Shown here piece by piece: positions 10,170 through 35,516 of a DNA stretch of 64,000 nt. The stretch covers positions 10,486-74,485 of IMG/VR virus record IMGVR_UViG_3300035703_000061. The stretch is one strand, 5' to 3'. Origin of the DNA: a virus. Each line of letters opens with the position of its first letter. Within the stretch, counting starts at the first letter, position 1. The position numbers and the translations under genes are program-made. A model generated the notes under the pieces. The model searched no databases. It was not told the origin of the DNA and was given only the letters and a program-made list of their open reading frames with translations.

Positions 10170-10726
10170 GCGCCTTCGTCATCGCAGATACGCATTTTGG
10201 CCACGCCAAAAGCATTTCTTTCGTGCGTCCTGATGGCGAATTGCTGCGTCCATTTTCTTCCGTAGAAGAAATGGACGAAACAATGGTGAAACGATGGAAT
10301 AAGAAAGTAGGCAAGCGTGATACGATTTACCATCTTGGTGACGTAGTAATTCCTCGTGCAAGTTTGAAAATCCTTGATCGTCTTAATGGACGCAAGATTC
10401 TCATTCGCGGGAATCATGATATTGGACCATTGAAAGATTTTTCTAAATACTTTGAAGACGTGAGGGGAGCGTTCTTTCATAATGGCGATTCAACCATGAA
10501 AGGAGGATTAATTTTCACCCATATTCCAGTGCATCCAGCATGTCTGTCAGGGCATTATCTGGGCAATGTTCATGGTCATTTGCATTGCCACCAAGTTTTT
10601 AATGAAAAAGGAGAAATTGATAAGCGTTATTACAATGCTTGTGTGGAAAGGAATGATTTCGCTCCAGTAGCATTTGAAGAGATAAAAGCCTTCTTTAAGG
10701 GCCATGACGGAACGCAGGACTTTTAA
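10166..10726 (+). CDS. calcineurin-like metallophosphoesterase
   Basis: ADTHFGH, HLGDV, RGNHD, FTHIP, HGHLH motifs. Confidence 0.92.
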   Translation: MSAFVIADTHFGHAKSISFVRPDGELLRPFSSVEEMDETMVKRWNKKVGKRDTIYHLGDVVIPRASLKILDRLNGRKILIRGNHDIGPLKDFSKYFEDVRGAFFHNGDSTMKGGLIFTHIPVHPACLSGHYLGNVHGHLHCHQVFNEKGEIDKRYYNACVERNDFAPVAFEEIKAFFKGHDGTQDF

Positions 10727-13603: not shown

Positions 13604-15478
13604 ATGGAAAGCGACGCAATTGATCTTGGTCACGTTGGTAGTGGCGGAGTGAGAGCTGATGGACTCACAAACGTGCTCATTGGTATGGGCACTGGCCGTG
13701 ATAAGGCGCAATATACTAAAACTACAGCCACAGTATTCCTAGCGCAAGAAGAACTAGAAAATCTTTATGGTGAATGGCTTCCTCGTCGCATTGTTGATAT
13801 TTATGCTGACCAAGCCACTCGCAAAGGCTTCAAGGTATTGTTTGGTGGCGATGGCGTTAAAGCCGAAGAAGTGCAAGGAATTGAGCAAGTAATTGAAGAC
13901 CTCTACATCCTCGAACATCTCAACCTCGCAGCGAAGAACGCCCGCCTTTATGGGGGTGCTTGTCTACTTCTTTTTATTGACGATGGGCGTCCCGCTTACA
14001 TGCCTGTCGATAAACGGAATATCCGTCGCATCGAAGACATTGAGTGCTTGGACCGATGGCAAATTGCGCCCGTTATTAACGAAGAAAACTTATACGACTA
14101 TTCAAAAGCCACTTATTATCAGATCATCTCTGGAGATTTGATTAACCAGCCGCAGCTTACTTATATTCACAAGGATAGGATTTTGCGTTTTGATGGCGAT
14201 TGGCTGCCATATCGCGTTAGGCAAAGGAACTATGGATGGGGCATGAGCAGTTTGCAAACTGTTTATGACAGCTTCAGGCATTATTGGACTGGCTTAAATT
14301 CGGCAGCAACGCTTCTCACTGAATTTGACATCTTTGTTCATAAAGTAAGGGGCCTTGCGGCAATGCTTGCTGCTGGCAAAGAAAGCTCCATTCGTGACCG
14401 CTTGCAAGTGAATGATATGAGCAAGAGCATCTATCGCGGCTACGCGATTGATGCGGAGAAAGAAGAGCTTGAATTCATTAGCCGCAACTTTGGCGGCATT
14501 GGAGAAATCCTAGAAAAGCTGCGCGTTGATATTATTGGTGCCAGTAAGATTCCTCATACAGTGTTGTTTGGCGAAAGTCCGAGCGGGCTTGGCTCCACTG
14601 GCCGCAGTGAAGAGCGTGATTTCGCCAAAACTCTTGCTGATTATCAAAGTGTTCATTTCAAGCGGCCCATCAAGAAGCTGATGGAAATGATCATGCTTAG
14701 TAAGGAAGGCCCTACAAAGGGGGAGCTTCCTGAATCGTGGCGCATTTCTTTCAATCCATTGTTCGAGCTTAATGAACGCGAAATGGCCGACGTACGGGCG
14801 CGTGTGGCGGCCGTAGACGGTCGTTACATCCAACTGGGTGTACTGAGTCCTAAGGAAGTGGCAGATGCCCGCTATGGCGGTTCTGAGTGGAGCATGGAAC
14901 TCACCTTGGATCCGTCCGTAGTGCGGGAACTTCCTGCTCAAGCTGGGGGTGGTTCCACTCAGAAAGGGGGTGACGGAAAAATGGCGGTGCCTCCTGGCGG
15001 TCGTGATCCCATGAACGAAGAAAATGGCACGCTTCCTATGGATGGCAGCCGTGAAGTGCAAGATGCTGCCGGGCTTTATTTGTCCCGAGATCTTGAGAAA
15101 GTGCGAGGCGAAGAAAAAGAAGATGCAGAATTTAAAGATAAAGAGCTGCACAAGCAAGCAGTGGCAGCAGCAAAGGCGAAGTTCAAAGTGTGGCCGAGTG
15201 CAGTTGCTGGGGCTTATGTCACACAAAAGTACAAGGCTTTATACAAGCGCAAGCATGGCTCTATGCAAGGGGCTTTTAGTGGCAAAAAAGAGCAGGCGGA
15301 GTATTTCAAAAAAGATGGAATGGAGCCAATGAAAGTGGAAGGCCTCATCCTTTCCGACCTTGACGAAGCTGCATTAATTAGTGCTGAGGATATTGACGCT
15401 GCATTGAATCAATGGAAGGAGGAAGCACCAGATCGTTTTAAGGATATTCTGGAGGCTGAAGATGCAAGGCCTGAATGA
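13604..15478 (+). CDS. portal protein (DUF1073-type) with C-terminal extension
   Basis: DGLTNVLIGMGT, RRIVDIYADQATRKG, ARLYGG, IHKDRIL, WGMS, IPHTVLFGESPSG, FNPLF; position in the head module. Confidence 0.88.
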   Translation: MESDAIDLGHVGSGGVRADGLTNVLIGMGTGRDKAQYTKTTATVFLAQEELENLYGEWLPRRIVDIYADQATRKGFKVLFGGDGVKAEEVQGIEQVIEDLYILEHLNLAAKNARLYGGACLLLFIDDGRPAYMPVDKRNIRRIEDIECLDRWQIAPVINEENLYDYSKATYYQIISGDLINQPQLTYIHKDRILRFDGDWLPYRVRQRNYGWGMSSLQTVYDSFRHYWTGLNSAATLLTEFDIFVHKVRGLAAMLAAGKESSIRDRLQVNDMSKSIYRGYAIDAEKEELEFISRNFGGIGEILEKLRVDIIGASKIPHTVLFGESPSGLGSTGRSEERDFAKTLADYQSVHFKRPIKKLMEMIMLSKEGPTKGELPESWRISFNPLFELNEREMADVRARVAAVDGRYIQLGVLSPKEVADARYGGSEWSMELTLDPSVVRELPAQAGGGSTQKGGDGKMAVPPGGRDPMNEENGTLPMDGSREVQDAAGLYLSRDLEKVRGEEKEDAEFKDKELHKQAVAAAKAKFKVWPSAVAGAYVTQKYKALYKRKHGSMQGAFSGKKEQAEYFKKDGMEPMKVEGLILSDLDEAALISAEDIDAALNQWKEEAPDRFKDILEAEDARPE

Positions 15479-21974: not shown

Positions 21975-22244
21975 ATGACTAAGAAGGAGAAGCAGGCAAA
22001 AATTGCTCGTGTTTTGCGCGAGTTTAAAGCTGGAAAGCTCAAAGGAAGCGACAAAAAGCCTATAACAAATCGTCGCCAAGCAATTGCCATCGCCCTCTCC
22101 GAAGCCGGTATGTCAATGAAAGGCAAAAGCGATGCTTACATTGATGCCTACATTGATACCATGATGTGCATGGAAGTAGAGGAGCCCGAGGAAGAGAATG
22201 GTATGGAAGAGGAAATGGATGGGAGCTGCGGAAAAAAGCGCTGA
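21975..22244 (+). CDS. DUF6496-like small head-region protein (zero-frame product)
   Basis: KIARVLREFKAGKLKGS..NRRQAIAIALSEAG with an acidic tail. Confidence 0.7.
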   Translation: MTKKEKQAKIARVLREFKAGKLKGSDKKPITNRRQAIAIALSEAGMSMKGKSDAYIDAYIDTMMCMEVEEPEEENGMEEEMDGSCGKKR

Positions 22245-22591
22245 GGGGAGACGCTGAAAGCTTCTCCCCTCCTGCTGCTGTAAGGAGTGCCGCTCGTCGT
22301 GGTTTAGAACTACGCAAGAAGCACGGCAAAGGCGGCTTGACGACGCAGGAGGCGGGGAAGCAGGGCATTGGTAGCGGAGTGGCTAGGGCTACAAGCTTGG
22401 CAAATGGAGAGAAAGTGAGCTACGCCACCATCAAGAGAATGGCAGCGTTTTTTTCTCGCCATCGAAAGAATAAAAGTGGTGGAGAAGATGATGCAGGGCG
22501 AATCGCATGGCTGCTCTGGGGATCAGACGCAGGAGAGTCTTGGGCTCGACGCATCATTAAAATGGTGGAAAGTCGAAATAAAGACCAATGA
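22229..22591 (+). CDS. basic phage head-region domain, probably reached by -1 frameshift from the 21975 ORF
   Basis: PPAAVRSAARRGLELRKK..GVARA..KRMAAFFSRH..GRIAWLLWG; no in-frame ATG before the domain. Confidence 0.7.
   Translation, partial: RKKALRGDAESFSPPAAVRSAARRGLELRKKHGKGGLTTQEAGKQGIGSGVARATSLANGEKVSYATIKRMAAFFSRHRKNKSGGEDDAGRIAWLLWGSDAGESWARRIIKMVESRNKDQ
22232..22271 (+). promoter_or_regulatory. predicted -1 programmed ribosomal frameshift signal
   Basis: In-frame A_AAA_AAG at 22232-22238; 9 bp stem GAGGGGAGA/TCTCCCCTC 4 nt downstream; GGGAG upstream. Confidence 0.7.
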
Positions 22592-22902
22592 GCGAATACG
22601 TGCGCGTTATCGAACAAGAAGACGAAGGCATTGGTCTAATGCAGGCTTTGTCCATTCTTTCCGCCAACGAACATCGCAACACTTCACGCTGGGAGCTTGT
22701 TGAAAAGCAATGCTTCAAGAATGGCCGTCTCGACGAAACTCACATCTATGTGATGAGTGTTTACGACAAGCCTGATCCTCATTTTGATCCAACAAAATTC
22801 CTCACTTTTGAAATTGAGGCAATGGCGAAGTCATATATTATGGAAGGCATTGAGGATCAACTACGCGACCTTCGTGGCGATGATGATGACGAAGAGGATT
22901 AA
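22588..22902 (+). CDS. hypothetical acidic protein
   Basis: 104 aa ORF, ATGA-coupled. Confidence 0.7.
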   Translation: MSEYVRVIEQEDEGIGLMQALSILSANEHRNTSRWELVEKQCFKNGRLDETHIYVMSVYDKPDPHFDPTKFLTFEIEAMAKSYIMEGIEDQLRDLRGDDDDEED

Positions 22903-23183
22903 TCGCGCTTCGCATTAAGAATGAACGATGGGTAGCCCATCAGCCACAGCACGCTAATTCCATAGAGTCCACTGAGAGTGCGAATTTGCACGCAGTCAGG
23001 AGCGAGTTCTGCACGTTCCATTCGAGAATAAGAACTCTGACTTGTATGCAAAGCTTCCGCTACATTCTTCTGTGAAAGCCCGCTGTTAAGGCGGGCTTCT
23101 TTAATGCGAGAAGCAATGAGAAGACGAGCCTGCTGATGAGGCATTTTAAGCACATCGGCATTGCTCTTCTTAAGGAACATCAT
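22899..23183 (-). CDS. XRE-family HTH transcriptional regulator
   Basis: RIKEARLNSGLSQKNVAEALHTSQSSYSRMERAE..LSGLYGISVLWL. Confidence 0.85.
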   Translation of the reverse strand: MMFLKKSNADVLKMPHQQARLLIASRIKEARLNSGLSQKNVAEALHTSQSSYSRMERAELAPDCVQIRTLSGLYGISVLWLMGYPSFILNAKRD

Positions 23184-23245: not shown

Positions 23246-24439
23246 ATGAGCACCGCATCTTGTCGCTACGATTTCTCGCCCATTGAGAAATATGAGGTGA
23301 CGCCCGAAGGTTACCTTCGGGCTTGGGCCTCGATTGCTCGCACTGGCATTCAGCTCTACACAGATGCTGATGGCTCAGTGCGTCGTGAATACAGGCCTGA
23401 AGAAGAAGTGGCCTCTCCCGCGAGCCTAGCCTCTTTTGCTGGCAAGGCCGTAACCGCCGAACATCCGCCCGTTCTTCTAGATGCTGACAATACTAAAGAC
23501 TACCAAGTAGGATTTAGCGGCACTGAAGTGGTGTATGACAATGGTTTTGTCAAGGCTGTGATGACAATCACGGACCAAGATGCCATTGATCGTATTATGC
23601 GCGGCGATGCTCGTGAAGTTAGCGCTGGCTACAGGGTTAATTATGATCCAACGCCAGGCGTTACCGATAGCGGTGAGCATTACGACGGCATCCAAAAGGA
23701 AATCGTTGGAAATCACATCGCCGTTGTTCGACGGGGCCGTGCTGGCCCACAGGTGAAGCTCCATCTTGATCGTCAAGATGCCGCCGATCCATCTTTAATT
23801 CAAAACACCGAGGAACGTCTTATGACTGCAAAAGTCGTATTCGACGGCGCCGAGTTTGAGGTGAGCGAGAGCGTTGCTCTTGCGATCACCAAAGAACGGG
23901 AAGATGGCCGTATGTCCTATGAGGACATGAAGAAGAAGTACGATGGTATGGTGGCCGAAGCTTCCAAAATGAAGGAAGAAATGGACGCCATGGAAAAGGA
24001 AATGAAGGGCAAGTGCGATTCCGCTGAGGGTCGTGCTGATGCTCTGGCAGAACAAGTTGAAGAACTGACTGCTGAACTGGCTGCCGCCAAGGAGATCAAC
24101 CTTGATTCCATGGTGGAAGAGCGTGTGGCTCTCATCGAGAAGGCTAAGCCTGTTCTTGATGCTGCTTATGCTTTCGCTGGCAAAACTGCCCGTGAAGTGA
24201 TGGTTGATTCCATCAAAGCAGTGCGTGGCGATGAGCTTGATCTTTCTGAGAAGAGCGACGACTACGTACAGGCAATGTTTGACACCCTTTCTGAGGGTCG
24301 CAAAGATTCTGCCACCACTGACGAGCTGCGCAAAGCCGTAGCTTCCATTGCTTCTCCGAAGTCTGCACCTTCGTCCTATATGGACATGCTGCAGAATGCT
24401 TGGAAGAAGCCCCTTTCCATCTCCAAGGAGGCTAAGTAA
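23246..24439 (+). CDS. DUF2213-type prohead protease/scaffold
   Basis: TPEGYL..ARTGIQLY, YRPEEEV, VTAEHP, EVSAGY, NHIAVVRRGRAGP; coiled-coil C-terminus. Confidence 0.88.
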   Translation: MSTASCRYDFSPIEKYEVTPEGYLRAWASIARTGIQLYTDADGSVRREYRPEEEVASPASLASFAGKAVTAEHPPVLLDADNTKDYQVGFSGTEVVYDNGFVKAVMTITDQDAIDRIMRGDAREVSAGYRVNYDPTPGVTDSGEHYDGIQKEIVGNHIAVVRRGRAGPQVKLHLDRQDAADPSLIQNTEERLMTAKVVFDGAEFEVSESVALAITKEREDGRMSYEDMKKKYDGMVAEASKMKEEMDAMEKEMKGKCDSAEGRADALAEQVEELTAELAAAKEINLDSMVEERVALIEKAKPVLDAAYAFAGKTAREVMVDSIKAVRGDELDLSEKSDDYVQAMFDTLSEGRKDSATTDELRKAVASIASPKSAPSSYMDMLQNAWKKPLSISKEAK

Positions 24440-25018: not shown

Positions 25019-25927
25019 ATGTCTGAATTCCGTATGGATGATGCGGGCCTGTTCCTTGAGCGTCAGCTTGAGTACATTCGCCCCCAAGTCTTTGAAGTGC
25101 AGTATGCGGATATTAAATATCCCACTGTGCTGCCCGTTACTGCTGAAGCTGGTCCTGGCGCCCAGACCTTCACCTATCGCATCATGGACTCCACTGGTGA
25201 GTTCAAGCTGATTGCGGACGCTGCTGATGATCTGCCCCGTGCCGACATCAGCCAAGTGGAGAAGAGCATCAACATCCGTTCATTCGGTGGCAGCTTTGGC
25301 TACACCGTGCAAGAACTGCGTGCTGCTCAAATGGCCAACATCGCTCTGGAGCAGCGTCGTGCTGCTGCCGTGCGTCGTGCCTATGAAGAGAAAGTGGAGA
25401 GCCTGGCTTTCTTCGGCGAAAGCTCTGTGGGTCTCGCTGGTTTCTTCAACAACTCCACTGTGGACGTTGTTGCTGCTGACAAGTGGTTCACCACTGCCGG
25501 CACCACTGCCCAGGAAATGCTGGAGCTGCTGAACTATGGCGTGACTGCCATCATCAACGGCTCGAAGATGAAGGAGCAGCCCGACACCATTCTGCTGTCC
25601 TACGCGGATTACAACAAGATCAGCACCACTCGTAACTCCGATTCTTCGGACGTGACCGTGCTTGAGTACTTCCTGCGTACCAACCCCTACATCCGCAACG
25701 TTGAGCCCATCAACCAGTTGGAAGCTGACAACAGCCCGCTGAACACTGACCGTATGGTTGTGTACAAGCGTGATCCTGAGAAGGTGCAACTGCACATTCC
25801 TCAGCCTCTTGAGCTGTTCCCGCCCCAACAGCGTGGCCTGGAATTCATCGTTCCTGCTCACGCCCGCGTGGGTGGCGTTGCTCTTTACTATCCCAAGAGC
25901 ATGATCTACGTGCAGGCATCTGCCTGA
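25019..25927 (+). CDS. major capsid protein (DUF2184-type)
   Basis: FLERQLEYI, GYTVQELRAA, LAFFG..GFFN, RMVVY, RVGGVALYYP; strongly biased codon usage. Confidence 0.9.
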   Translation: MSEFRMDDAGLFLERQLEYIRPQVFEVQYADIKYPTVLPVTAEAGPGAQTFTYRIMDSTGEFKLIADAADDLPRADISQVEKSINIRSFGGSFGYTVQELRAAQMANIALEQRRAAAVRRAYEEKVESLAFFGESSVGLAGFFNNSTVDVVAADKWFTTAGTTAQEMLELLNYGVTAIINGSKMKEQPDTILLSYADYNKISTTRNSDSSDVTVLEYFLRTNPYIRNVEPINQLEADNSPLNTDRMVVYKRDPEKVQLHIPQPLELFPPQQRGLEFIVPAHARVGGVALYYPKSMIYVQASA

Positions 25928-28598: not shown

Positions 28599-28858
28599 AA
28601 ATCGACTATTTATGGAGCGCTGACAATACAGTGCATGCCATTAATTGCTTAATTGATGGCGCTGCTTTAGAAGTGGGCATCCTTTGTCTTGTTTCTTGCA
28701 GGGAAACGACCATTAGAATAAGCAACGAAAATCATTCAATGCTGATTGAAGTGCCACCAGAATTCCGCTCTTCTCATGAGCGAGTGAAGGTGTACAACGC
28801 ATTGTTAAACATTCTCGATCATGAGCAAATACAGCTTCCTAGTTCAAACCAAGACTGA
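28595..28858 (+). CDS. hypothetical protein
   Basis: ATGA-coupled 87 aa ORF. Confidence 0.55.
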   Translation: MKIDYLWSADNTVHAINCLIDGAALEVGILCLVSCRETTIRISNENHSMLIEVPPEFRSSHERVKVYNALLNILDHEQIQLPSSNQD

Positions 28859-29354
28859 AGGCTATTTCGAGCTGCTGCCCGAAATCCGTCTGAAGAAATA
28901 TGGCAGTTGGCTTGTTGCTGAATCCATTGAACAGGAGGAGATCAGCAAACTGCAAAGCCAAGCTACCATTCGTGCCGTTCAGCTTGCAAAGCGCATTGCT
29001 GCCTCGCGTGAGATTCCTCTAGATGAGGCCTTTGCGCTGTTGCAGGGCGGTGGCTCTATTTCAGAGGCCGAGCTGCTTTCTGAGTTCACAGAGGAGACGC
29101 TGAGCATGATCACCAGTGGATCGTCAGTGGAAGCCACTAATGCTCGCATGGTCACTGCTTTCATTCGTTCTCGTGGACAGGGCCTTATTGATGGCGAGTG
29201 GCAGGATCTTGGCGACTGGGAGATTGAAGACACCAAAAATCTTCCTCGTAAAGCCATTGCAAAAGTGGTTGAATTTATTGCTGAAGAGCAAAACGCTGAG
29301 ACGCAGGAGGCTGTAGAAGCAAAAAAAGCAGTGAAGAGGAATTCTCCTCAGTAG
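28821..29354 (+). CDS. tail assembly chaperone (gpG-like)
   Basis: Upstream of the tape measure; in-frame A_AAA_AAA at 29321-29327. Confidence 0.78.
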   Translation: MSKYSFLVQTKTEGYFELLPEIRLKKYGSWLVAESIEQEEISKLQSQATIRAVQLAKRIAASREIPLDEAFALLQGGGSISEAELLSEFTEETLSMITSGSSVEATNARMVTAFIRSRGQGLIDGEWQDLGDWEIEDTKNLPRKAIAKVVEFIAEEQNAETQEAVEAKKAVKRNSPQ

Positions 29355-29794
29355 CAGAAAGGCTTGAAGCACAAGCAAGGAAGCAGCTTAAGAGCCTGAC
29401 AGATTGGAACGAAATCTATTTCAGGCTCTCAGCTTCTGATTTCAAAGACGAGCGATGGAGCGCCAAAAATTTTGGCCTCCAGAAGCTTGATGACGTTAAG
29501 CGTGCACTGAAATATCTTGACCGTCATGACATTGCAAAATACAATGTCGCAAGTGTTGCCGTGGCCAAGCTTGGCACTATGGCAGCAGGGATGATGGCGG
29601 GAAGAAAGAGCAAAGTAAAGCCTGAGGATTTCTTGCCGTTTGATACTAAGCAGCTTAAGAAAGAAGATGGCGTGACAGATGCAAGCTTGATTGTTCTACA
29701 GCGTCTGATGAAGACAAGAAGAATGGACGGGCGCGTTATTGCATTGCTTGCTGATGAAATGAAGGCTTTTGCTGGGCGCAATCAAGAGCAATGA
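29321..29794 (+). CDS. tail assembly chaperone -1 frameshift extension (gpT-like)
   Basis: -1 frame is open from the slippery site to 29794; hairpin GAGGA-ATTC-TCCTC downstream. Confidence 0.75.
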   Translation, partial: KKSSEEEFSSVAERLEAQARKQLKSLTDWNEIYFRLSASDFKDERWSAKNFGLQKLDDVKRALKYLDRHDIAKYNVASVAVAKLGTMAAGMMAGRKSKVKPEDFLPFDTKQLKKEDGVTDASLIVLQRLMKTRRMDGRVIALLADEMKAFAGRNQEQ

Positions 29795-29828: not shown

Positions 29829-32800
29829 ATGGCAGCTCAAGACGCCGAACTAAAGCTGAAGGTAAGTCTTGATCTGGCGTTTCTTAGGCAGCAATTAAGC
29901 ACGATTGGCACGCAGCTCGCTGGACAAGGCATTGATATCAGCGCCGAAATTGACAAAGATGACGTAGTAAAACAATACAATTTACTTGCCAAAACTTTAG
30001 AAAGTAAGACTATTCGGCTAAAAGTTGAAAGTACCACGCTTGACTCTCTTGTTATTAAGGCCGCAAACCTTAAGAAAAACCTTGAAGAATTTGGCAAGCA
30101 AGATATTTCCTTAGATATTAAAATTGCCAGCAATATTGCCGATCTGCGTAAAAGCATCAAGGATAAACTTCCTTCTGTTGCTATTGATACTCATCTTAAT
30201 GAACCCGTAAATGTTTACGACTTTATTCGCGATGTAGCGAAAAAAGTCGACGATCAAGTGAAGAAAAGCTATGTAGCAGGCGGAATTCCTATTGTTACAA
30301 AGCTTGCATTGCCCGGACTCGCGGATCCGCTGAAAGCTCTGCAGAAAAATTTAAATCAAAGAGATCCGCTGCGAGCAAAAGTTGGCACAACCCCATCAAT
30401 TCAAAAGTCAGATGTGACAGCATTCAAGACTGCTGTCAGTGAAAAATTCAAGGACATCACTGTAAAAGTTAAAGCTGAGCTTGAAACTGCCACCGCTGCT
30501 GCGCAAGGCGCTACTACTGGGCCTTCTCGCACTTTCTTGCAAGAGCTAAAAGACTTAGACAAGAGCGTCCTTCAGAGCATTTACAAAGCCGCTGGCGAAG
30601 ATGCGTTACTGGCATTTGATGAAGGAATTATTAACAACAAAACAAAAATGGCGCAAGCCTTAAATAAGGCTGCGGAAGATGCAAGCGCTGGCTTTATTGC
30701 CGCCCTTGAAAACAAGAAGAGCGCGTTATTCAAGGCAGCAGGCGAATATGGAGGCGCATTGCTTAGCGGCCTCAGAAAAACTCTCAAGATTCAATCCCCT
30801 TCAAGGGAGATGTTTGATATTGGCGATGATGCGGGTAAAGGTTTTGAGCTTGGCTTATTAAAGGCCTTAGAGCTGGCAGAAAAGTCTGCTACTAATCAAA
30901 TGCGACGGATGTTAGACCGTCTCGCTCGCATGGCGCTCATGATGGGAGGCATGAGTGCTGCAGCAATTAACAGGCAAGTTGCACAGTCAAGAGCATTGCC
31001 TAGCGTTAATTTCCCCGCGACTGTACCGCCTCGTCAAAGCATCCCCATTGGACCTTCTGGAACAGGCAGGGCGTTGCCTCCTGGCGCTATTCCTCAAGCT
31101 CTGCCTGGCACTGCTTTTGGCGCTCAAAAATATCTTCCTACCAATCTTGGCATTGAATTACAGCAAATTCTGCAAAAAGCTGCATATGCTTTTGTTGATG
31201 CAGTTCGACGAGAAGTGAGAACTGTAAAAATTGGCATTGGCGCTTCAATGCAAGCAGCTCTTCCTGCTGCTCGCATTGCTGGCTTGCTTCCTTCTGCTGT
31301 TGGCCGCGCTCCTAGTACTTATTCCACAGGAGCAATTGGCGGTGAATCACGCGAGCAAATGATGGCGCGGCGTACAGCAGAAGCTTATGCACGTTCTGCG
31401 TTGCGTGGGATGGATGTAATGGGAGGAGGGGCTGGTCGCCCTCCGTCTCCTTATAGCTATGCGTATAGGAGTGCAAGGCCAACCAGCGCAATTATTCCCT
31501 ATGCACAGCCCGGTGCAATTGTGCCGTCACCCGTTGCTGGCGAGGGAGGAGCAGTGCCTCCTGTGGGCGGCGGTGGAGGCATGCGAGGGATGGGAGGAAT
31601 GGGCGGCTTTGGTCGTGCATTGGGAGGCGTTAATCTTCCTGGCGCAGGAGCCATTCGTGAACTTGGTCAAGAATTTGCTTTTGCTACGCAGCAAGTATTG
31701 CTCTTTGGTCAAGCATATAAAATGCTTGCCTTTATTCAGAATTTTCCGACACAAGTTGGAGCGGCGGTAAGTCAGCTTCAAAACTTCCGCAATACTCTTG
31801 GTGCCATTTCTCCAACCGCAGAAGAAGCGGCATCTTCTAATCGTTTAATTCTTGATTTGGTTGAGAAATATAATGTGCCGCTGCAGTCGGCACGAGATGG
31901 CTTTACGAAGCTTTATGCTTCTATGGCTCCTGCTGGCTTTAGCGGAGATGAAATCAGGAATTTATTCACTGGCATTACGCAAGCTGCTGCCACATTTGGC
32001 ATGAGCGCAGACAAAGTGGATCGCGTAAATTATGCCTTTGCTCAAATGGCAAGCAAAGGACAAGTGATGAGCGAAGAGCTGAAAGGACAGTTAGGCGATG
32101 TACTACCTGGCGCTATGGCAATTTTTGCAAAGGCCGCTGGATTTGAAGGGTCAAAAGCTATTCAAGACTTTTCTGCGGAGTTAGAAGCTGGCAGATACAA
32201 AGGCGAGGCGATGGTCGCATTGCTTAAAAATGTTGGCATTGTAATGAGGCAGGAATTCGGCTCTGGAGCCGAAGGCGCAGCTTTGACTTTTCAAGGCATT
32301 ATTAATCGCATGCAAAATTCAATGATCCTCTTATATGAGAGCTTTGAGCCTGTTGCCGTGGGATTTTTGAATACTGTCGTTGTGCCATTAACTGATGGAA
32401 TTAGGCAAATTTCCGATGGATTTAATGCTTTCTTTACTGGAGCAGCAACAAAAACGAGCGGCGGCTTTGGAATAGCCCAAGAACTTGAACGTCTTAAGCC
32501 GACATTTGAAGGCCTTGGCCAAAACGTAAAAGCTTTGATTGAGCAATTTGGTCAATTTGCTCGGGCCGGGCTAGAAGTGGGCAAGGTGTTATTGCAAATT
32601 GCGGGCAATCCATTCGTTGGTTACCTCGCGCGTGTATATGCTGCTGTGCTCCCGTTGACGCTGGCAATTCAGGTTCTAAATTTAAGAGCCCTTGTTCCCT
32701 TGATTGCTAGTTTTGTGCGCGCCATTCCAGTGTTTGTTACTTATACAGCGGCAACTGCTCAAGGTGTTACCGCCAACAAGGCATTGCAGTTAGCGATGGT

Positions 32801-35516
32801 AACTACAGGGAAAACTGCTGGCGTTACGGCAACTCAAATTAGAACAGTTGGAACTGCAATGAAGGCAGCTTTTGCCGGCACCGTTATCGGCTCTGTTTTG
32901 CTTGGCATTGGCATGTTGATAGAGAAAATTATTTCTTTAAATGCGTCAATGGCCGACACGAAAGCAAAGGCCATGGGAGCCGCGCAAGCTATTCGCTCGA
33001 TGTCGCAAACAGAAGCCCAGCAGGCCACTAGACAATACGAGGCGGGAGCGCAAAGTTTAAAAGGATTAAATGAAGAGATAGAGCAAGGGAAGCTTAAGGG
33101 AAAGGCTTGGATTGAAGTGACATCTCAGCAAGCGAAGGCATTGCAAGATGCTGGAGTGATTGTTTCAAATGTCAGAGGCTCTTTACAGGTGCAGCCAACG
33201 CGAGTGACGGGAGCATTTCAGAAATTACAAGGACTAGCAGCGGAGGGAAAATATAGACAAGAGCTACTTTCCTATGAAGAAAAACAAGCGCAGCAGACAG
33301 TATCGCTTCCTCCTATTCCCGCCGGAGGAGGTGAAGAGAAAGGGAATGAAAAAGCGCTAGCAAAAGCCGCAGAAGAAGCCCGTAGACTTGCTGATGATAA
33401 GCGTAAGTACGAAGCTGATTTAATGAATATTAGCTTTGATCAAGCAATTAACTTGAGCGATATGGAATTTGAGCATTGGAAAAACTTGCAGCAGGCGAAA
33501 TACGATTTTCTTGAGGCAGGACAAAACGAATGGATGAGCAGAGAATTGAAATTCCAACGCGATCTTCAGGCTATTGAAATTCGCAGAATTGAGACAATTC
33601 GCAAAGCGCAAGTTGATACCGCTAAAGCTGAAATGAAGGCAGCTACGAGCGCTTATGTGGCGGAAGATTCCGGCGCTGGCGGGGGTGCTGCCATGTTCGG
33701 CGCTACCGGGAGAGTGTTCAACGCTCCTGGCTGGGTTCATGGTCATTTTCAAAACATGAACCGAGAGGCATTAGTTCAAGACACTGTTGAAGTGGTAATG
33801 AAGCTTCTGCAGCAAGGTGTTAAGCCTGAGTTGGGTAGCGGGCAAAAATTCACTGCTGGAATGCAGCAAGCTCAAGTGGAGCAGTTAGTGCGTCGTGGCA
33901 TTGCTTCGCATAAATCGTACGCGAGTGGAGTTGGGGCTATTGATGTGTTTGTTCCGCAAGGGACGCGAGTGCCAGTTGGCTTGTCAGGAGTGAGCAATCT
34001 CGGTGGCGCCGCTGGTGTTTCCGGGAATCTGCCTCGTGGCACGCAATTAATGCACCTCGATCCCAGCTCGCGCTCTGGAGCGGCTGGTGCAGCGCCTGCT
34101 GGAGTGCCTGCTTCAAGAATAAGAGCAGAAGCGAAGAAGGATTATGCTTCGGCGCTTGCAAGTCAAGAAGCAATTAATGCGAAAGAAAAAGAAAATCTTG
34201 CCACTAAATATGCAAATATTCAGGCGCAACAAGAGCTTAATGTTCTCATTCGAGAATACACTGCCTCCATTGTTCCAGTGGAACAGCAAAAGCTTGAAAA
34301 TACTCTCTTACAAAATCGCATTAGTTTAATCTCGTCCGGGGCGTTTGGAGATGCTCTTGAGACTGAACAGAAGATTAGCGAAGCCAGAGAAAAAGCTGCT
34401 CTTGGCGTGCAAATGGCCAATGCTCAAATTGAGCAAAATAACAAACTAGTAAAAGATGGAATTATCAAGCAAGAAGAAGCAGATAAGCTAAATGCTTCTC
34501 AAGTGGAAAAAATTAAGCAGCTCACTCAGGGGCTTGAAGCTTACATCCCACTGCTAAGAGAAAGACTGAAGCTTGAGCAATCAAGTGCAGAAGCTACTTT
34601 GCGTGGTGAAATCACTCGCGCCACTCCTCTGGGAGGCATGGGACTTTCTGCTGGTTTTATTGGTCCTGCTAGCGATAGGTTTGAGGAGGCGATTGGTCGT
34701 GGGGCCACACAAGATGAGGCGTCGCGTTTCGCCGAATTACAGAATCAACTCACTCTTCTTGAGAGCAGAAATGAGGCTATCAAGCAGTCCATCTATGGCA
34801 TTGGCAATGCTTTTGGCGAAGCTTTAACTACTGGCGTAGCAAGCCTCGTTTCCGGCACTGCCACTGCTAAAGAAGTATTTGCAAGCTTCTTGCAAAGCGT
34901 GGGTCAAGCTTTGTCTCAAGCGGCTTCGCAGATGATTGCCACTTACATTGCCATTGGTATTGCAAAAATGTTTGCGGGCCTTGGCGGAGGCGGTGGAAAT
35001 CCAGCAGGTAGCGGAGGAGGGATCTCTGACATTCTCCCTGGGGCAAGTAAATACATGGAAGGAGGAGGCGCTGCACTTGGCGCTAGCGCTGGTACATTCG
35101 GTGCCGTAACAACAGGCTACGCTAATGGCGGCATTGTGCCCGGCGGCTTCCGGGCGTTTGCCAACGGTGGCGTCGTCAGTGGTCCTACGCTTGGCCTTGT
35201 AGGCGAAGGCAAGTACAACGAAGCCATTGTCCCCCTCCCAGATGGTCGTTCCATTCCCGTGCAGCTTGGTGGACGTTCTGCCCGTGACCTCATGGGCAAT
35301 GGCGCCCCAGGTATGCCTCAAGCGCCTTCTCTGAGCATGAAGTTTGAAACGACTAAGATTAATGGCGTAGAATACGTTAGCAGAGAACAATTAGAGCAGG
35401 CAATGGCAGAAACTCGTCGCGCTTCCATTGCAGGCGGTGCTCAACGAGGCATGTCAATGACGCTCGATAAGATTAAGCAAAGCCCCTCCACTCGCTCTAG
35501 TATTGGTATCCGCTAA
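29829..35516 (+). CDS. tape measure protein
   Basis: 1895 aa, Ala/Gly-rich helical; AFAQMASKGQVMSEELKGQLGD; C-terminal FANGGVVSGPTLGLVGEG. Confidence 0.93.
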   Translation: MAAQDAELKLKVSLDLAFLRQQLSTIGTQLAGQGIDISAEIDKDDVVKQYNLLAKTLESKTIRLKVESTTLDSLVIKAANLKKNLEEFGKQDISLDIKIASNIADLRKSIKDKLPSVAIDTHLNEPVNVYDFIRDVAKKVDDQVKKSYVAGGIPIVTKLALPGLADPLKALQKNLNQRDPLRAKVGTTPSIQKSDVTAFKTAVSEKFKDITVKVKAELETATAAAQGATTGPSRTFLQELKDLDKSVLQSIYKAAGEDALLAFDEGIINNKTKMAQALNKAAEDASAGFIAALENKKSALFKAAGEYGGALLSGLRKTLKIQSPSREMFDIGDDAGKGFELGLLKALELAEKSATNQMRRMLDRLARMALMMGGMSAAAINRQVAQSRALPSVNFPATVPPRQSIPIGPSGTGRALPPGAIPQALPGTAFGAQKYLPTNLGIELQQILQKAAYAFVDAVRREVRTVKIGIGASMQAALPAARIAGLLPSAVGRAPSTYSTGAIGGESREQMMARRTAEAYARSALRGMDVMGGGAGRPPSPYSYAYRSARPTSAIIPYAQPGAIVPSPVAGEGGAVPPVGGGGGMRGMGGMGGFGRALGGVNLPGAGAIRELGQEFAFATQQVLLFGQAYKMLAFIQNFPTQVGAAVSQLQNFRNTLGAISPTAEEAASSNRLILDLVEKYNVPLQSARDGFTKLYASMAPAGFSGDEIRNLFTGITQAAATFGMSADKVDRVNYAFAQMASKGQVMSEELKGQLGDVLPGAMAIFAKAAGFEGSKAIQDFSAELEAGRYKGEAMVALLKNVGIVMRQEFGSGAEGAALTFQGIINRMQNSMILLYESFEPVAVGFLNTVVVPLTDGIRQISDGFNAFFTGAATKTSGGFGIAQELERLKPTFEGLGQNVKALIEQFGQFARAGLEVGKVLLQIAGNPFVGYLARVYAAVLPLTLAIQVLNLRALVPLIASFVRAIPVFVTYTAATAQGVTANKALQLAMVTTGKTAGVTATQIRTVGTAMKAAFAGTVIGSVLLGIGMLIEKIISLNASMADTKAKAMGAAQAIRSMSQTEAQQATRQYEAGAQSLKGLNEEIEQGKLKGKAWIEVTSQQAKALQDAGVIVSNVRGSLQVQPTRVTGAFQKLQGLAAEGKYRQELLSYEEKQAQQTVSLPPIPAGGGEEKGNEKALAKAAEEARRLADDKRKYEADLMNISFDQAINLSDMEFEHWKNLQQAKYDFLEAGQNEWMSRELKFQRDLQAIEIRRIETIRKAQVDTAKAEMKAATSAYVAEDSGAGGGAAMFGATGRVFNAPGWVHGHFQNMNREALVQDTVEVVMKLLQQGVKPELGSGQKFTAGMQQAQVEQLVRRGIASHKSYASGVGAIDVFVPQGTRVPVGLSGVSNLGGAAGVSGNLPRGTQLMHLDPSSRSGAAGAAPAGVPASRIRAEAKKDYASALASQEAINAKEKENLATKYANIQAQQELNVLIREYTASIVPVEQQKLENTLLQNRISLISSGAFGDALETEQKISEAREKAALGVQMANAQIEQNNKLVKDGIIKQEEADKLNASQVEKIKQLTQGLEAYIPLLRERLKLEQSSAEATLRGEITRATPLGGMGLSAGFIGPASDRFEEAIGRGATQDEASRFAELQNQLTLLESRNEAIKQSIYGIGNAFGEALTTGVASLVSGTATAKEVFASFLQSVGQALSQAASQMIATYIAIGIAKMFAGLGGGGGNPAGSGGGISDILPGASKYMEGGGAALGASAGTFGAVTTGYANGGIVPGGFRAFANGGVVSGPTLGLVGEGKYNEAIVPLPDGRSIPVQLGGRSARDLMGNGAPGMPQAPSLSMKFETTKINGVEYVSREQLEQAMAETRRASIAGGAQRGMSMTLDKIKQSPSTRSSIGIR

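Follow-up and report, generated by a model that had tools for sequence, protein, structure and literature searches.

How is a protein domain produced when it is conserved among many phages but its reading frame has no start codon of its own? This question is raised by a head-module gene of a siphovirus resembling Synechococcus siphovirus S-CBS4. The DNA analyzed, called the window throughout, comprises 64,000 nucleotides (nt) from positions 10,486 to 74,485 of the IMG/VR virus record IMGVR_UViG_3300035703_000061 and lies inside a phage genome of 74,485 base pairs (bp). On its plus strand a first open reading frame (ORF), ORF1 (21975..22244), is continued in the -1 frame by a second one, ORF2 (22238..22591). 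Comparison with relatives makes it very probable that both are joined by a programmed -1 ribosomal frameshift of the dnaX/IS3 type. Four features by which bacterial sites of the X_XXY_YYZ type are recognized were found: a heptamer in phase, a conserved -1 ORF without its own initiation site, a 3' RNA structure, and a site that is conserved, with relatives that carry an in-frame fusion or an alternative heptamer. From these sequence comparisons we infer both the ribosomal nature and the efficiency of the shift.

ORF1 is read in frame 0 and encodes 89 amino acids (aa), with a DUF6496 domain at residues 4-44 followed by an acidic linker. Its homologues begin with MTKKEKQAK, and its translated C-terminus is ...GSCGKKR*; this protein would be the short product made without a shift. 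The last codons GGA AAA AAG CGC TGA place the slippery heptamer A_AAA_AAG (22232..22238, plus strand) in the X_XXY_YYZ phase of frame 0, exactly as a first-pass annotation, made from the letters alone, had read it. One sense codon past the heptamer the frame-0 stop codon TGA (22242..22244) is reached, which stands at the foot of a predicted 3' stimulatory hairpin (22243..22271) beginning 4 nt past the heptamer. The 9-bp stem noticed earlier was found again as its lower part (GAGGGGAGA/TCTCCCCTC, 22243-22251 with 22263-22271) and was extended to 12 bp by an upper part with a 1x1 internal loop, 3 bp (22253-22255 with 22259-22261) and a GAA triloop (22256-22258). The minimum free energy (MFE) of the hairpin is -23 kcal/mol versus -13.6 +/- 2.6 kcal/mol for dinucleotide shuffles (z = -3.62), and 0 of 200 shuffles were as stable. 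In the -1 frame the sequence KKALRGDAESFSPPAAVRSAARRGLELRKK... remains open until the stop codon at 22589-22591 and encodes an all-helical domain of 117 aa (ALRGDAESFSPP...KDQ*) lacking its own start codon. A shift at the heptamer would consequently add to the 89-aa protein a second one of 205 aa (88 + 117, from 21975-22238 and 22238..22591), and the comparative data support the products of about 89 and about 205 aa that had been proposed. An upstream Shine-Dalgarno (SD)-like GGGAG had also been assigned to the signal. It is indeed present 6 nt 5' of the heptamer (22221..22225), but of the 72 distinct split junctions only 17 have GGAG at this spacing, and the element is absent from S-CBS4. The element is thus specific to a lineage rather than a conserved part of the signal, and the complete three-part arrangement of dnaX, which includes such an upstream stimulator, is not shared by the family.

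Relatives were collected by protein-guided searches of IMG/VR and by a pattern scan, yielding more than 160 loci that were classified by a script. Relative to the DUF6496 ORF, ORF2 is shifted to the -1 frame in every split locus. All 72 distinct split junctions carry an in-phase heptamer exactly 51 nt 5' of the RSAARRGL motif, and the frame-0 stop codon follows 0-1 codons past the heptamer in 71 of them. Within the window AAAAAAG is rarer than expected, with 10 copies on both strands versus 25.1 +/- 4.5 for dinucleotide shuffles. Because of this scarcity and of the identical position in 72/72 distinct split junctions, the arrangement of heptamer, ORFs and stem exceeds chance. The scarcity as such is consistent with an avoidance of slippery heptamers. 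Sixty-eight of the junctions have A_AAA_AAG and four have G_GGA_AAG (e.g., CTG GGA AAG GAC TGA). The heptamer and stem proposed earlier were recovered in homologues along with an alternative heptamer at the same place. In the tree of ORF2 the G_GGA_AAG forms are found on different sequence backgrounds; this tree is based on a short alignment with possible recombination and serves only to show that heptamer types and fusions are present on several backgrounds, not to count events. In Escherichia coli, -1 shifting in the presence of a stimulator is most efficient at C_CCA_AAG, G_GGA_AAG and A_AAA_AAG (Sharma et al. 2014, PMC4066793). The exchange of A_AAA_AAG and G_GGA_AAG at the same position is, judged from the sequences, the outcome expected from selection for slippage.

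The G_GGA_AAG junctions also bear on two other ways to obtain the long protein. RNA polymerase might add one A within the A6 run, and the 205-aa protein would then be made from edited messenger RNAs. Such transcriptional slippage usually takes place at runs of six to eight A's, and an in-frame DNA variant with seven A's, locus L193, is on record. Six A's are, however, shorter than the runs known to give efficient transcriptional slippage in bacteria. A site of this kind would be a long homopolymer acting independently of the phase, whereas the X_XXY_YYZ phase is strict in all junctions and the G_GGA_AAG loci have no long homopolymer, yet fit slippage of tandem transfer RNAs (tRNAs). A hairpin close by on the 3' side and a stop codon next to the heptamer are likewise features of a ribosomal site, and RNA-derived contigs showed no inserted A (contigs drop rare variants). 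Because of the G_GGA_AAG variants and the strict phase, we regard transcriptional slippage as highly improbable.

A miscounted homopolymer would be the simpler error. In this case the true genome would have seven A's and a single ORF of 205 aa, and in-frame versions do exist (P0043 and P0059 with the junction SCGKK.LRGDAE, and L193 with its seven A's). The first-pass annotation had warned of a true count of five or eight A's. Exactly six were found in independent assemblies, i.e., in all 80 listed of 97 IMG/VR pattern matches and in the isolate genome of S-CBS4, and Logan contigs (contigs, not reads) of four runs from four studies contained no indel at the A run. Scanning for the in-frame spacing with one extra base gave no match in IMG/VR and 4 matches in metagenome contigs of the Joint Genome Institute, all of them unrelated chance matches. 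Moreover, G_GGA_AAG cannot arise from a miscounted A run. Given the many independent assemblies with six A's and the isolate genome, an assembly error is extremely unlikely. In run X1 the summed depth of the Logan contigs rose from 26 to ~780 over 22224-22277, the stretch of heptamer and hairpin; this is the stretch most conserved among many co-occurring relatives in that sample, which may be the source.

S-CBS4, the closest cultured relative, was sequenced independently and shares 66.6% nucleotide identity over the region. Its gp018 ends with AGA AAA AAG GGC TAA and has the same heptamer in the same phase with six A's. In its -1 frame a TAA stands two codons 5' of the heptamer, and no ATG, GTG or TTG follows until the annotated GTG of gp019. 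When read in the -1 frame from the heptamer on, KKGLRGDAEGFAPPASV of S-CBS4 matches KKALRGDAESFSPPAAV of the window, and KK.LRGDAE.F.PPA.V is conserved between both from the heptamer onward. The part that lies past the heptamer but ahead of the gp019 start in the annotation reads GDAEGFAPPASVR in S-CBS4, with GDAESFSPPAAVR as its counterpart in this phage. A compensatory change is found in the stem, with GGGGAGA/TCTCCCC in the window versus GGGGCGA/TCGCCCC in S-CBS4. The S-CBS4 record lists gp018 and gp019 as two separate hypothetical proteins and annotates no recoding, in line with the earlier suspicion that standard annotation would miss the site.

That annotation treats ORF1 and ORF2 as independent genes. 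ORF2 would then be started at GTG 22166, at a CTG or TTG before the heptamer, or by termination-reinitiation, and heptamer and hairpin would be incidental. GTG 22166 is indeed present as the sole start codon in the ORF2 frame upstream of the domain in the window, where it sits within the Arg/Gly-rich peptide that results when the acidic linker is read out of frame; some relatives have a TTG two codons 5' of the heptamer, which gene callers used for 121-aa proteins (P0004), and gp019 of S-CBS4 is annotated from an internal GTG. None of these starts is conserved, however. GTG 22166, which had been named as the possible site of independent initiation, is not kept among relatives. Many split loci lack any ATG, GTG or TTG ahead of the domain when read in the ORF2 frame, and in several (L025, L041, L224, L235, L243) a stop codon in this frame immediately adjoins the heptamer. 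How far upstream the ORF2 frame is closed differs among loci, with the stop codon at -51 to -228 nt from the RSAARRGL motif. The TTG directly adjoins GGGAG, which leaves no SD spacing, and the codon overlapping the ORF1 stop is CTG, CTA or GAT, so that no reinitiation codon is conserved. An alignment of distant homologues showed that the domain opens with F-x-P-P-x-x-V, with Pro, Pro and Val at least 90% conserved. This motif falls in the start-less stretch upstream of any usable start codon, and the GTG start of S-CBS4 would remove it. Independent genes would also leave unexplained an invariant heptamer amid near-saturated synonymous sites. As no start is conserved and the N-terminus of the domain would be truncated, we consider independent initiation very unlikely.

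For the core of ORF2 a ratio of nonsynonymous to synonymous differences per site (pN/pS) of 0.12 was determined, with a mean pS of 0.68 and a maximum of 0.95 (81 distinct split sequences). Synonymous sites are therefore near saturation, yet the heptamer varies solely by the concerted change from AAA to GGG. For the 15 codons after the heptamer, before the first possible start, pN/pS was 0.20 and pS was reduced to 0.47, which fits translation of this stretch with an added constraint on the RNA. The purifying selection and the lack of a conserved start bear out the former description of the -1 frame as a protein domain without its own ATG. The same values speak to the idea of a decaying gene, in which a formerly fused gene lost one nucleotide and ORF2 persists as a remnant that is not translated. 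Fused forms do occur in sister lineages, but the purifying selection on ORF2 is strong, no further frameshifts or stop codons have accumulated, and the split state is spread over the whole tree. For practical purposes a pseudogene is refuted by this purifying selection, and its probability is close to nil. Split and fused forms alike conserve the motif R-[GD]-D-[AS]-E-S-F-[SA]-P-P directly after the shift site (22245-22262).

Fused forms had been named as a possible check in other phages, and they were found. In many close homologues (84-93% identity in the second domain) one ORF of 182-218 aa encodes the DUF6496 family PF20106 and the second domain, connected by an acidic linker without a slippery sequence; the PF20106 assignment is part of the precomputed annotation of these homologues. 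P0043 and P0059 contain the predicted trans-frame junction ...SCGKK(T/A)LRGDAE... within one ORF. Such natural fusions indicate that the two-domain protein is the biologically meaningful long product, and since many relatives make only the long form, this form is probably the functionally required one.

The hairpin was compared among the relatives as well. Using 45 distinct split junctions, its pairing was kept in 92.4% of cells versus 56-64% for slid controls. Pair 30:46, in which the third position of a Gly codon faces the first position of a Ser/Ala codon, covaries (AU 22, CG 11, UG 5). The covariation offers modest support for the hairpin. Split loci have a median MFE of -19.5 kcal/mol versus -9.1 kcal/mol for the in-frame fused ones (Mann-Whitney p = 7e-8, uncorrected for phylogeny), meaning that the fused relatives kept the peptide with a much weaker hairpin.

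The following course of events is proposed for the -1 frameshift. Ribosomes on ORF1 would reach A_AAA_AAG with the stable hairpin 4-5 nt 3' of it and the frame-0 stop one codon ahead, and with tRNA-Lys on AAA and AAG they would pause at the hairpin. Some of them would slip one base back, the tRNA-Lys pair re-pairing from AAA-AAG to AAA-AAA, and reading would resume with GCG CTG AGG... These ribosomes would continue through the 117-aa helical domain in the -1 frame. Two proteins with a shared N-terminus would be formed, a short form of 89 aa with DUF6496 and a long form of 205 aa composed of DUF6496, linker and second domain.

We are aware of several observations that weigh against this frameshift or its proposed stimulation. 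The covariation of the stem rests mainly on one pair, and the need to encode Arg-Gly and Ser/Ala-Pro-Pro accounts in part for the GGGG/CCCC core. A split sub-lineage (L013, L027, L040, L042) has a weak hairpin of -6 to -11 kcal/mol. The spacer of 4-5 nt between heptamer and hairpin is at the short end of the usual range, and the efficiency of A_AAA_AAG depends on the tRNA-Lys set of the host. L193 (IMGVR_UViG_3300013131_000066) is a rare in-frame variant with an extra A and reads AGA AAA AAA GTA GAT AGG, while its relatives L016 and L260 have six A's and then TAG; L193, P0043 and P0059 could represent either naturally "fixed" alleles or errors in the homopolymer. Finally, neither domain gave a credible structural relative in searches of PDB sequences, with Foldseek against the PDB (best E = 0.68), or with VIA-align wide (best Z = 5.8, under the noise level of helical models), and these failed searches are not evidence of new folds.

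What the two domains are was approached by profile searches and structure prediction. ORF1 matched DUF6496 (Pfam PF20106) at residues 4-44 with 26.8 bits at a cutoff of 24 (E = 6.7e-6). ORF2 aligned to positions 164-265 of the 740 positions of phrog_2859 (E = 1.3e-16) and had no match in Pfam, LPD models included; the NCBIfam search gave no match for either half. An AlphaFold2 model of the natural fusion P0043 (mean predicted local distance difference test score 85.9) contains two confident domains, 1-66 and 95-204, connected by a disordered acidic linker, and the shift site falls in this linker. The ORF2 domain was found to be a promiscuous viral module. Its fusion partners are portals (PF04860, PF06381, PF06074), MuF, Mu-type and S78 prohead proteases, a major capsid protein, and InPase, 2H/LigT, ddrB-ParB, LPD1, ADP-ribosyltransferase and helicase modules. 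The Pfam entries among the partners also include PF04233, PF10123, PF14550, PF18823, PF13563, PF18763, PF18796 and PF03496, and matches in BFVD also support the fusions. P0134, a homologue of the portal of this phage (13604-15478) with 43% identity over 599 residues, carries the ORF2 domain at its extreme C-terminus (residues 697-810, 70% identity). The domain is likewise C-terminal in the portal P0124 (residues 490-598; the identities for P0134 and P0124 range from 70 to 76%). In some phages the module thus reaches the portal by gene fusion, in others it reaches DUF6496 by frameshifting. InPase, 2H and ddrB-ParB are typical of the polyvalent proteins that phages package into the capsid (Iyer et al. 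2017, PMC5512222), and the recurrent fusion to portal, MuF, protease and known polyvalent-protein domains is the pattern of such polyvalent or portal cargo. As the domain is attached elsewhere to the C-termini of portals and to polyvalent proteins packaged into virions, the long product would act inside the head, probably near the portal.

The genomic neighborhood agrees with a head gene. Upstream, the portal gene (13604-15478, PF06381) and a block of glycosyltransferase-like genes were found. On the 3' side follow a 104-aa ORF, an antisense XRE-type repressor, the DUF2213 prohead protease (23246-24439), the cement protein and the major capsid protein (25019-25927). The earlier assignment of both halves to head-module domains holds with respect to the gene position and to the portal and protease fusions of the second domain; the location in the virion is deduced from these. 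The 104-aa ORF, ORF3 (22588..22902, plus strand), had no family match in profile searches. Its ATG overlaps the stop codon of ORF2 as ATGA (22588-22591 in the window, 1854-1857 in L001), an overlap present here and in S-CBS4. Because of this overlap, the translation of ORF3 may be coupled in part to the -1-shifted ribosomes. The repressor gene (22899-23183, minus strand) encodes an XRE/RstR-like helix-turn-helix protein and lies antisense between ORF3 and the prohead protease, with the same layout in S-CBS4 (gp021). The only tRNA encoded in the window is tRNA-Leu(taa).

The frameshift of the tail assembly chaperone had been set apart from the head site from the beginning, and both sites are in fact separate. 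A chaperone site of the G/GT type was located at 29321-29327, where A_AAA_AAA stands in phase near the end of an ORF (28821-29354) upstream of the tape measure gene. The -1 frame is open there from 29300 to 29794 and ends shortly before the tape measure (29829-35516). The site of ORF1 and ORF2 does not have the location of a tail chaperone site, as it belongs to the head module and lies upstream of the protease, cement and capsid genes.

The observations can also be combined into one wider picture, which we put forward as a speculation that is rather unlikely to hold in full. The frameshift would set the dose of a cargo inside the head. DUF6496 with the acidic linker would be a capsid-targeting or scaffold-like carrier, and the -1 extension a portal-proximal effector or anchor of the polyvalent-protein network. 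The DUF2213 prohead protease would cut at R-[GD]-D|[AS]-E just past the shift site and so release the module in the head. The output of ORF3 would be tied to the shifted frame via ATGA, and lineages would tune or abolish the ratio of short to long form by using A_AAA_AAG, G_GGA_AAG or an in-frame fusion.

Searching the literature for S-CBS4 frameshifting, DUF6496 and programmed ribosomal frameshifting in cyanophages, we found no description of the site. The recoding site is real, conserved and unannotated. Its mechanism is a textbook one, and the advance lies in the annotation and in a new model system. In the homologous metagenomic contigs that were sampled gene callers split or truncated the gene, and the 205-aa protein is therefore missing from most protein catalogues. 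S-CBS4 is the sole cultured relative, and even there the halves are filed apart, with gp019 given a truncating GTG start. Close relatives carry the junction as A_AAA_AAG, as G_GGA_AAG or as an in-frame fusion, which amounts to a natural experiment. The family offers a convenient system to study the efficiency of -1 frameshifting and its stimulators in cyanobacteria, for which few such data exist. The family also connects a helical domain, very widespread and uncharacterized, with a testable hypothesis of a head-internal protein.

Among the known systems, the tau/gamma site of E. coli dnaX shares with the phage site A_AAA_AAG, a 3' stem-loop a few nt on, a stop codon soon after in one of the frames and two products with a common N-terminus, and the window additionally has the SD-like GGGAG upstream. 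The distance between SD and heptamer is ~10 nt in dnaX versus 6 nt in the window, and in the phage family this stimulator is not conserved (17/72). Furthermore, the shift in dnaX truncates the protein to the short gamma, whereas in the phage it extends the protein by a whole domain, and gene, organism and function are unrelated. In orfA-orfB of IS3/IS911 ribosomes likewise shift to -1 at A_AAA_AAG (or X_XXA_AAG), upstream of a 3' structure, and thereby join a small ORF to a start-less downstream ORF, and the short and fused transposase products have distinct roles. The phage site is, in contrast, not part of a mobile element, has no transposase domains and relies on a simple hairpin as stimulator, not on a pseudoknot or a three-way junction. 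The lambda-like G/GT tail chaperones resemble it as conserved -1 recoding in a morphogenesis operon which gives a short and a long protein with a shared N-terminus. However, the phage site lies between portal-side genes and the prohead protease, not between tail tube and tape measure, and combines DUF6496 with a helical domain associated with portals and polyvalent proteins; in-frame fusion in relatives, frequent here, is to our knowledge unusual for G/GT. Gene 10A/10B of T7/T3 offers the precedent of a -1 frameshift in a head gene with a C-terminally extended minor form, although the phage gene is not the major capsid protein and its extension is an autonomous folded domain. The polyvalent proteins and the portal and MuF cargo fusions (PMC5512222) are related to the phage protein by the partners of the ORF2 domain, i.e., portal, MuF, prohead protease, InPase, 2H, ddrB-ParB and ADP-ribosyltransferase. 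They differ in that the ORF2 domain, which has no Pfam match, is joined here to a small DUF6496 protein by recoding and not by gene fusion.

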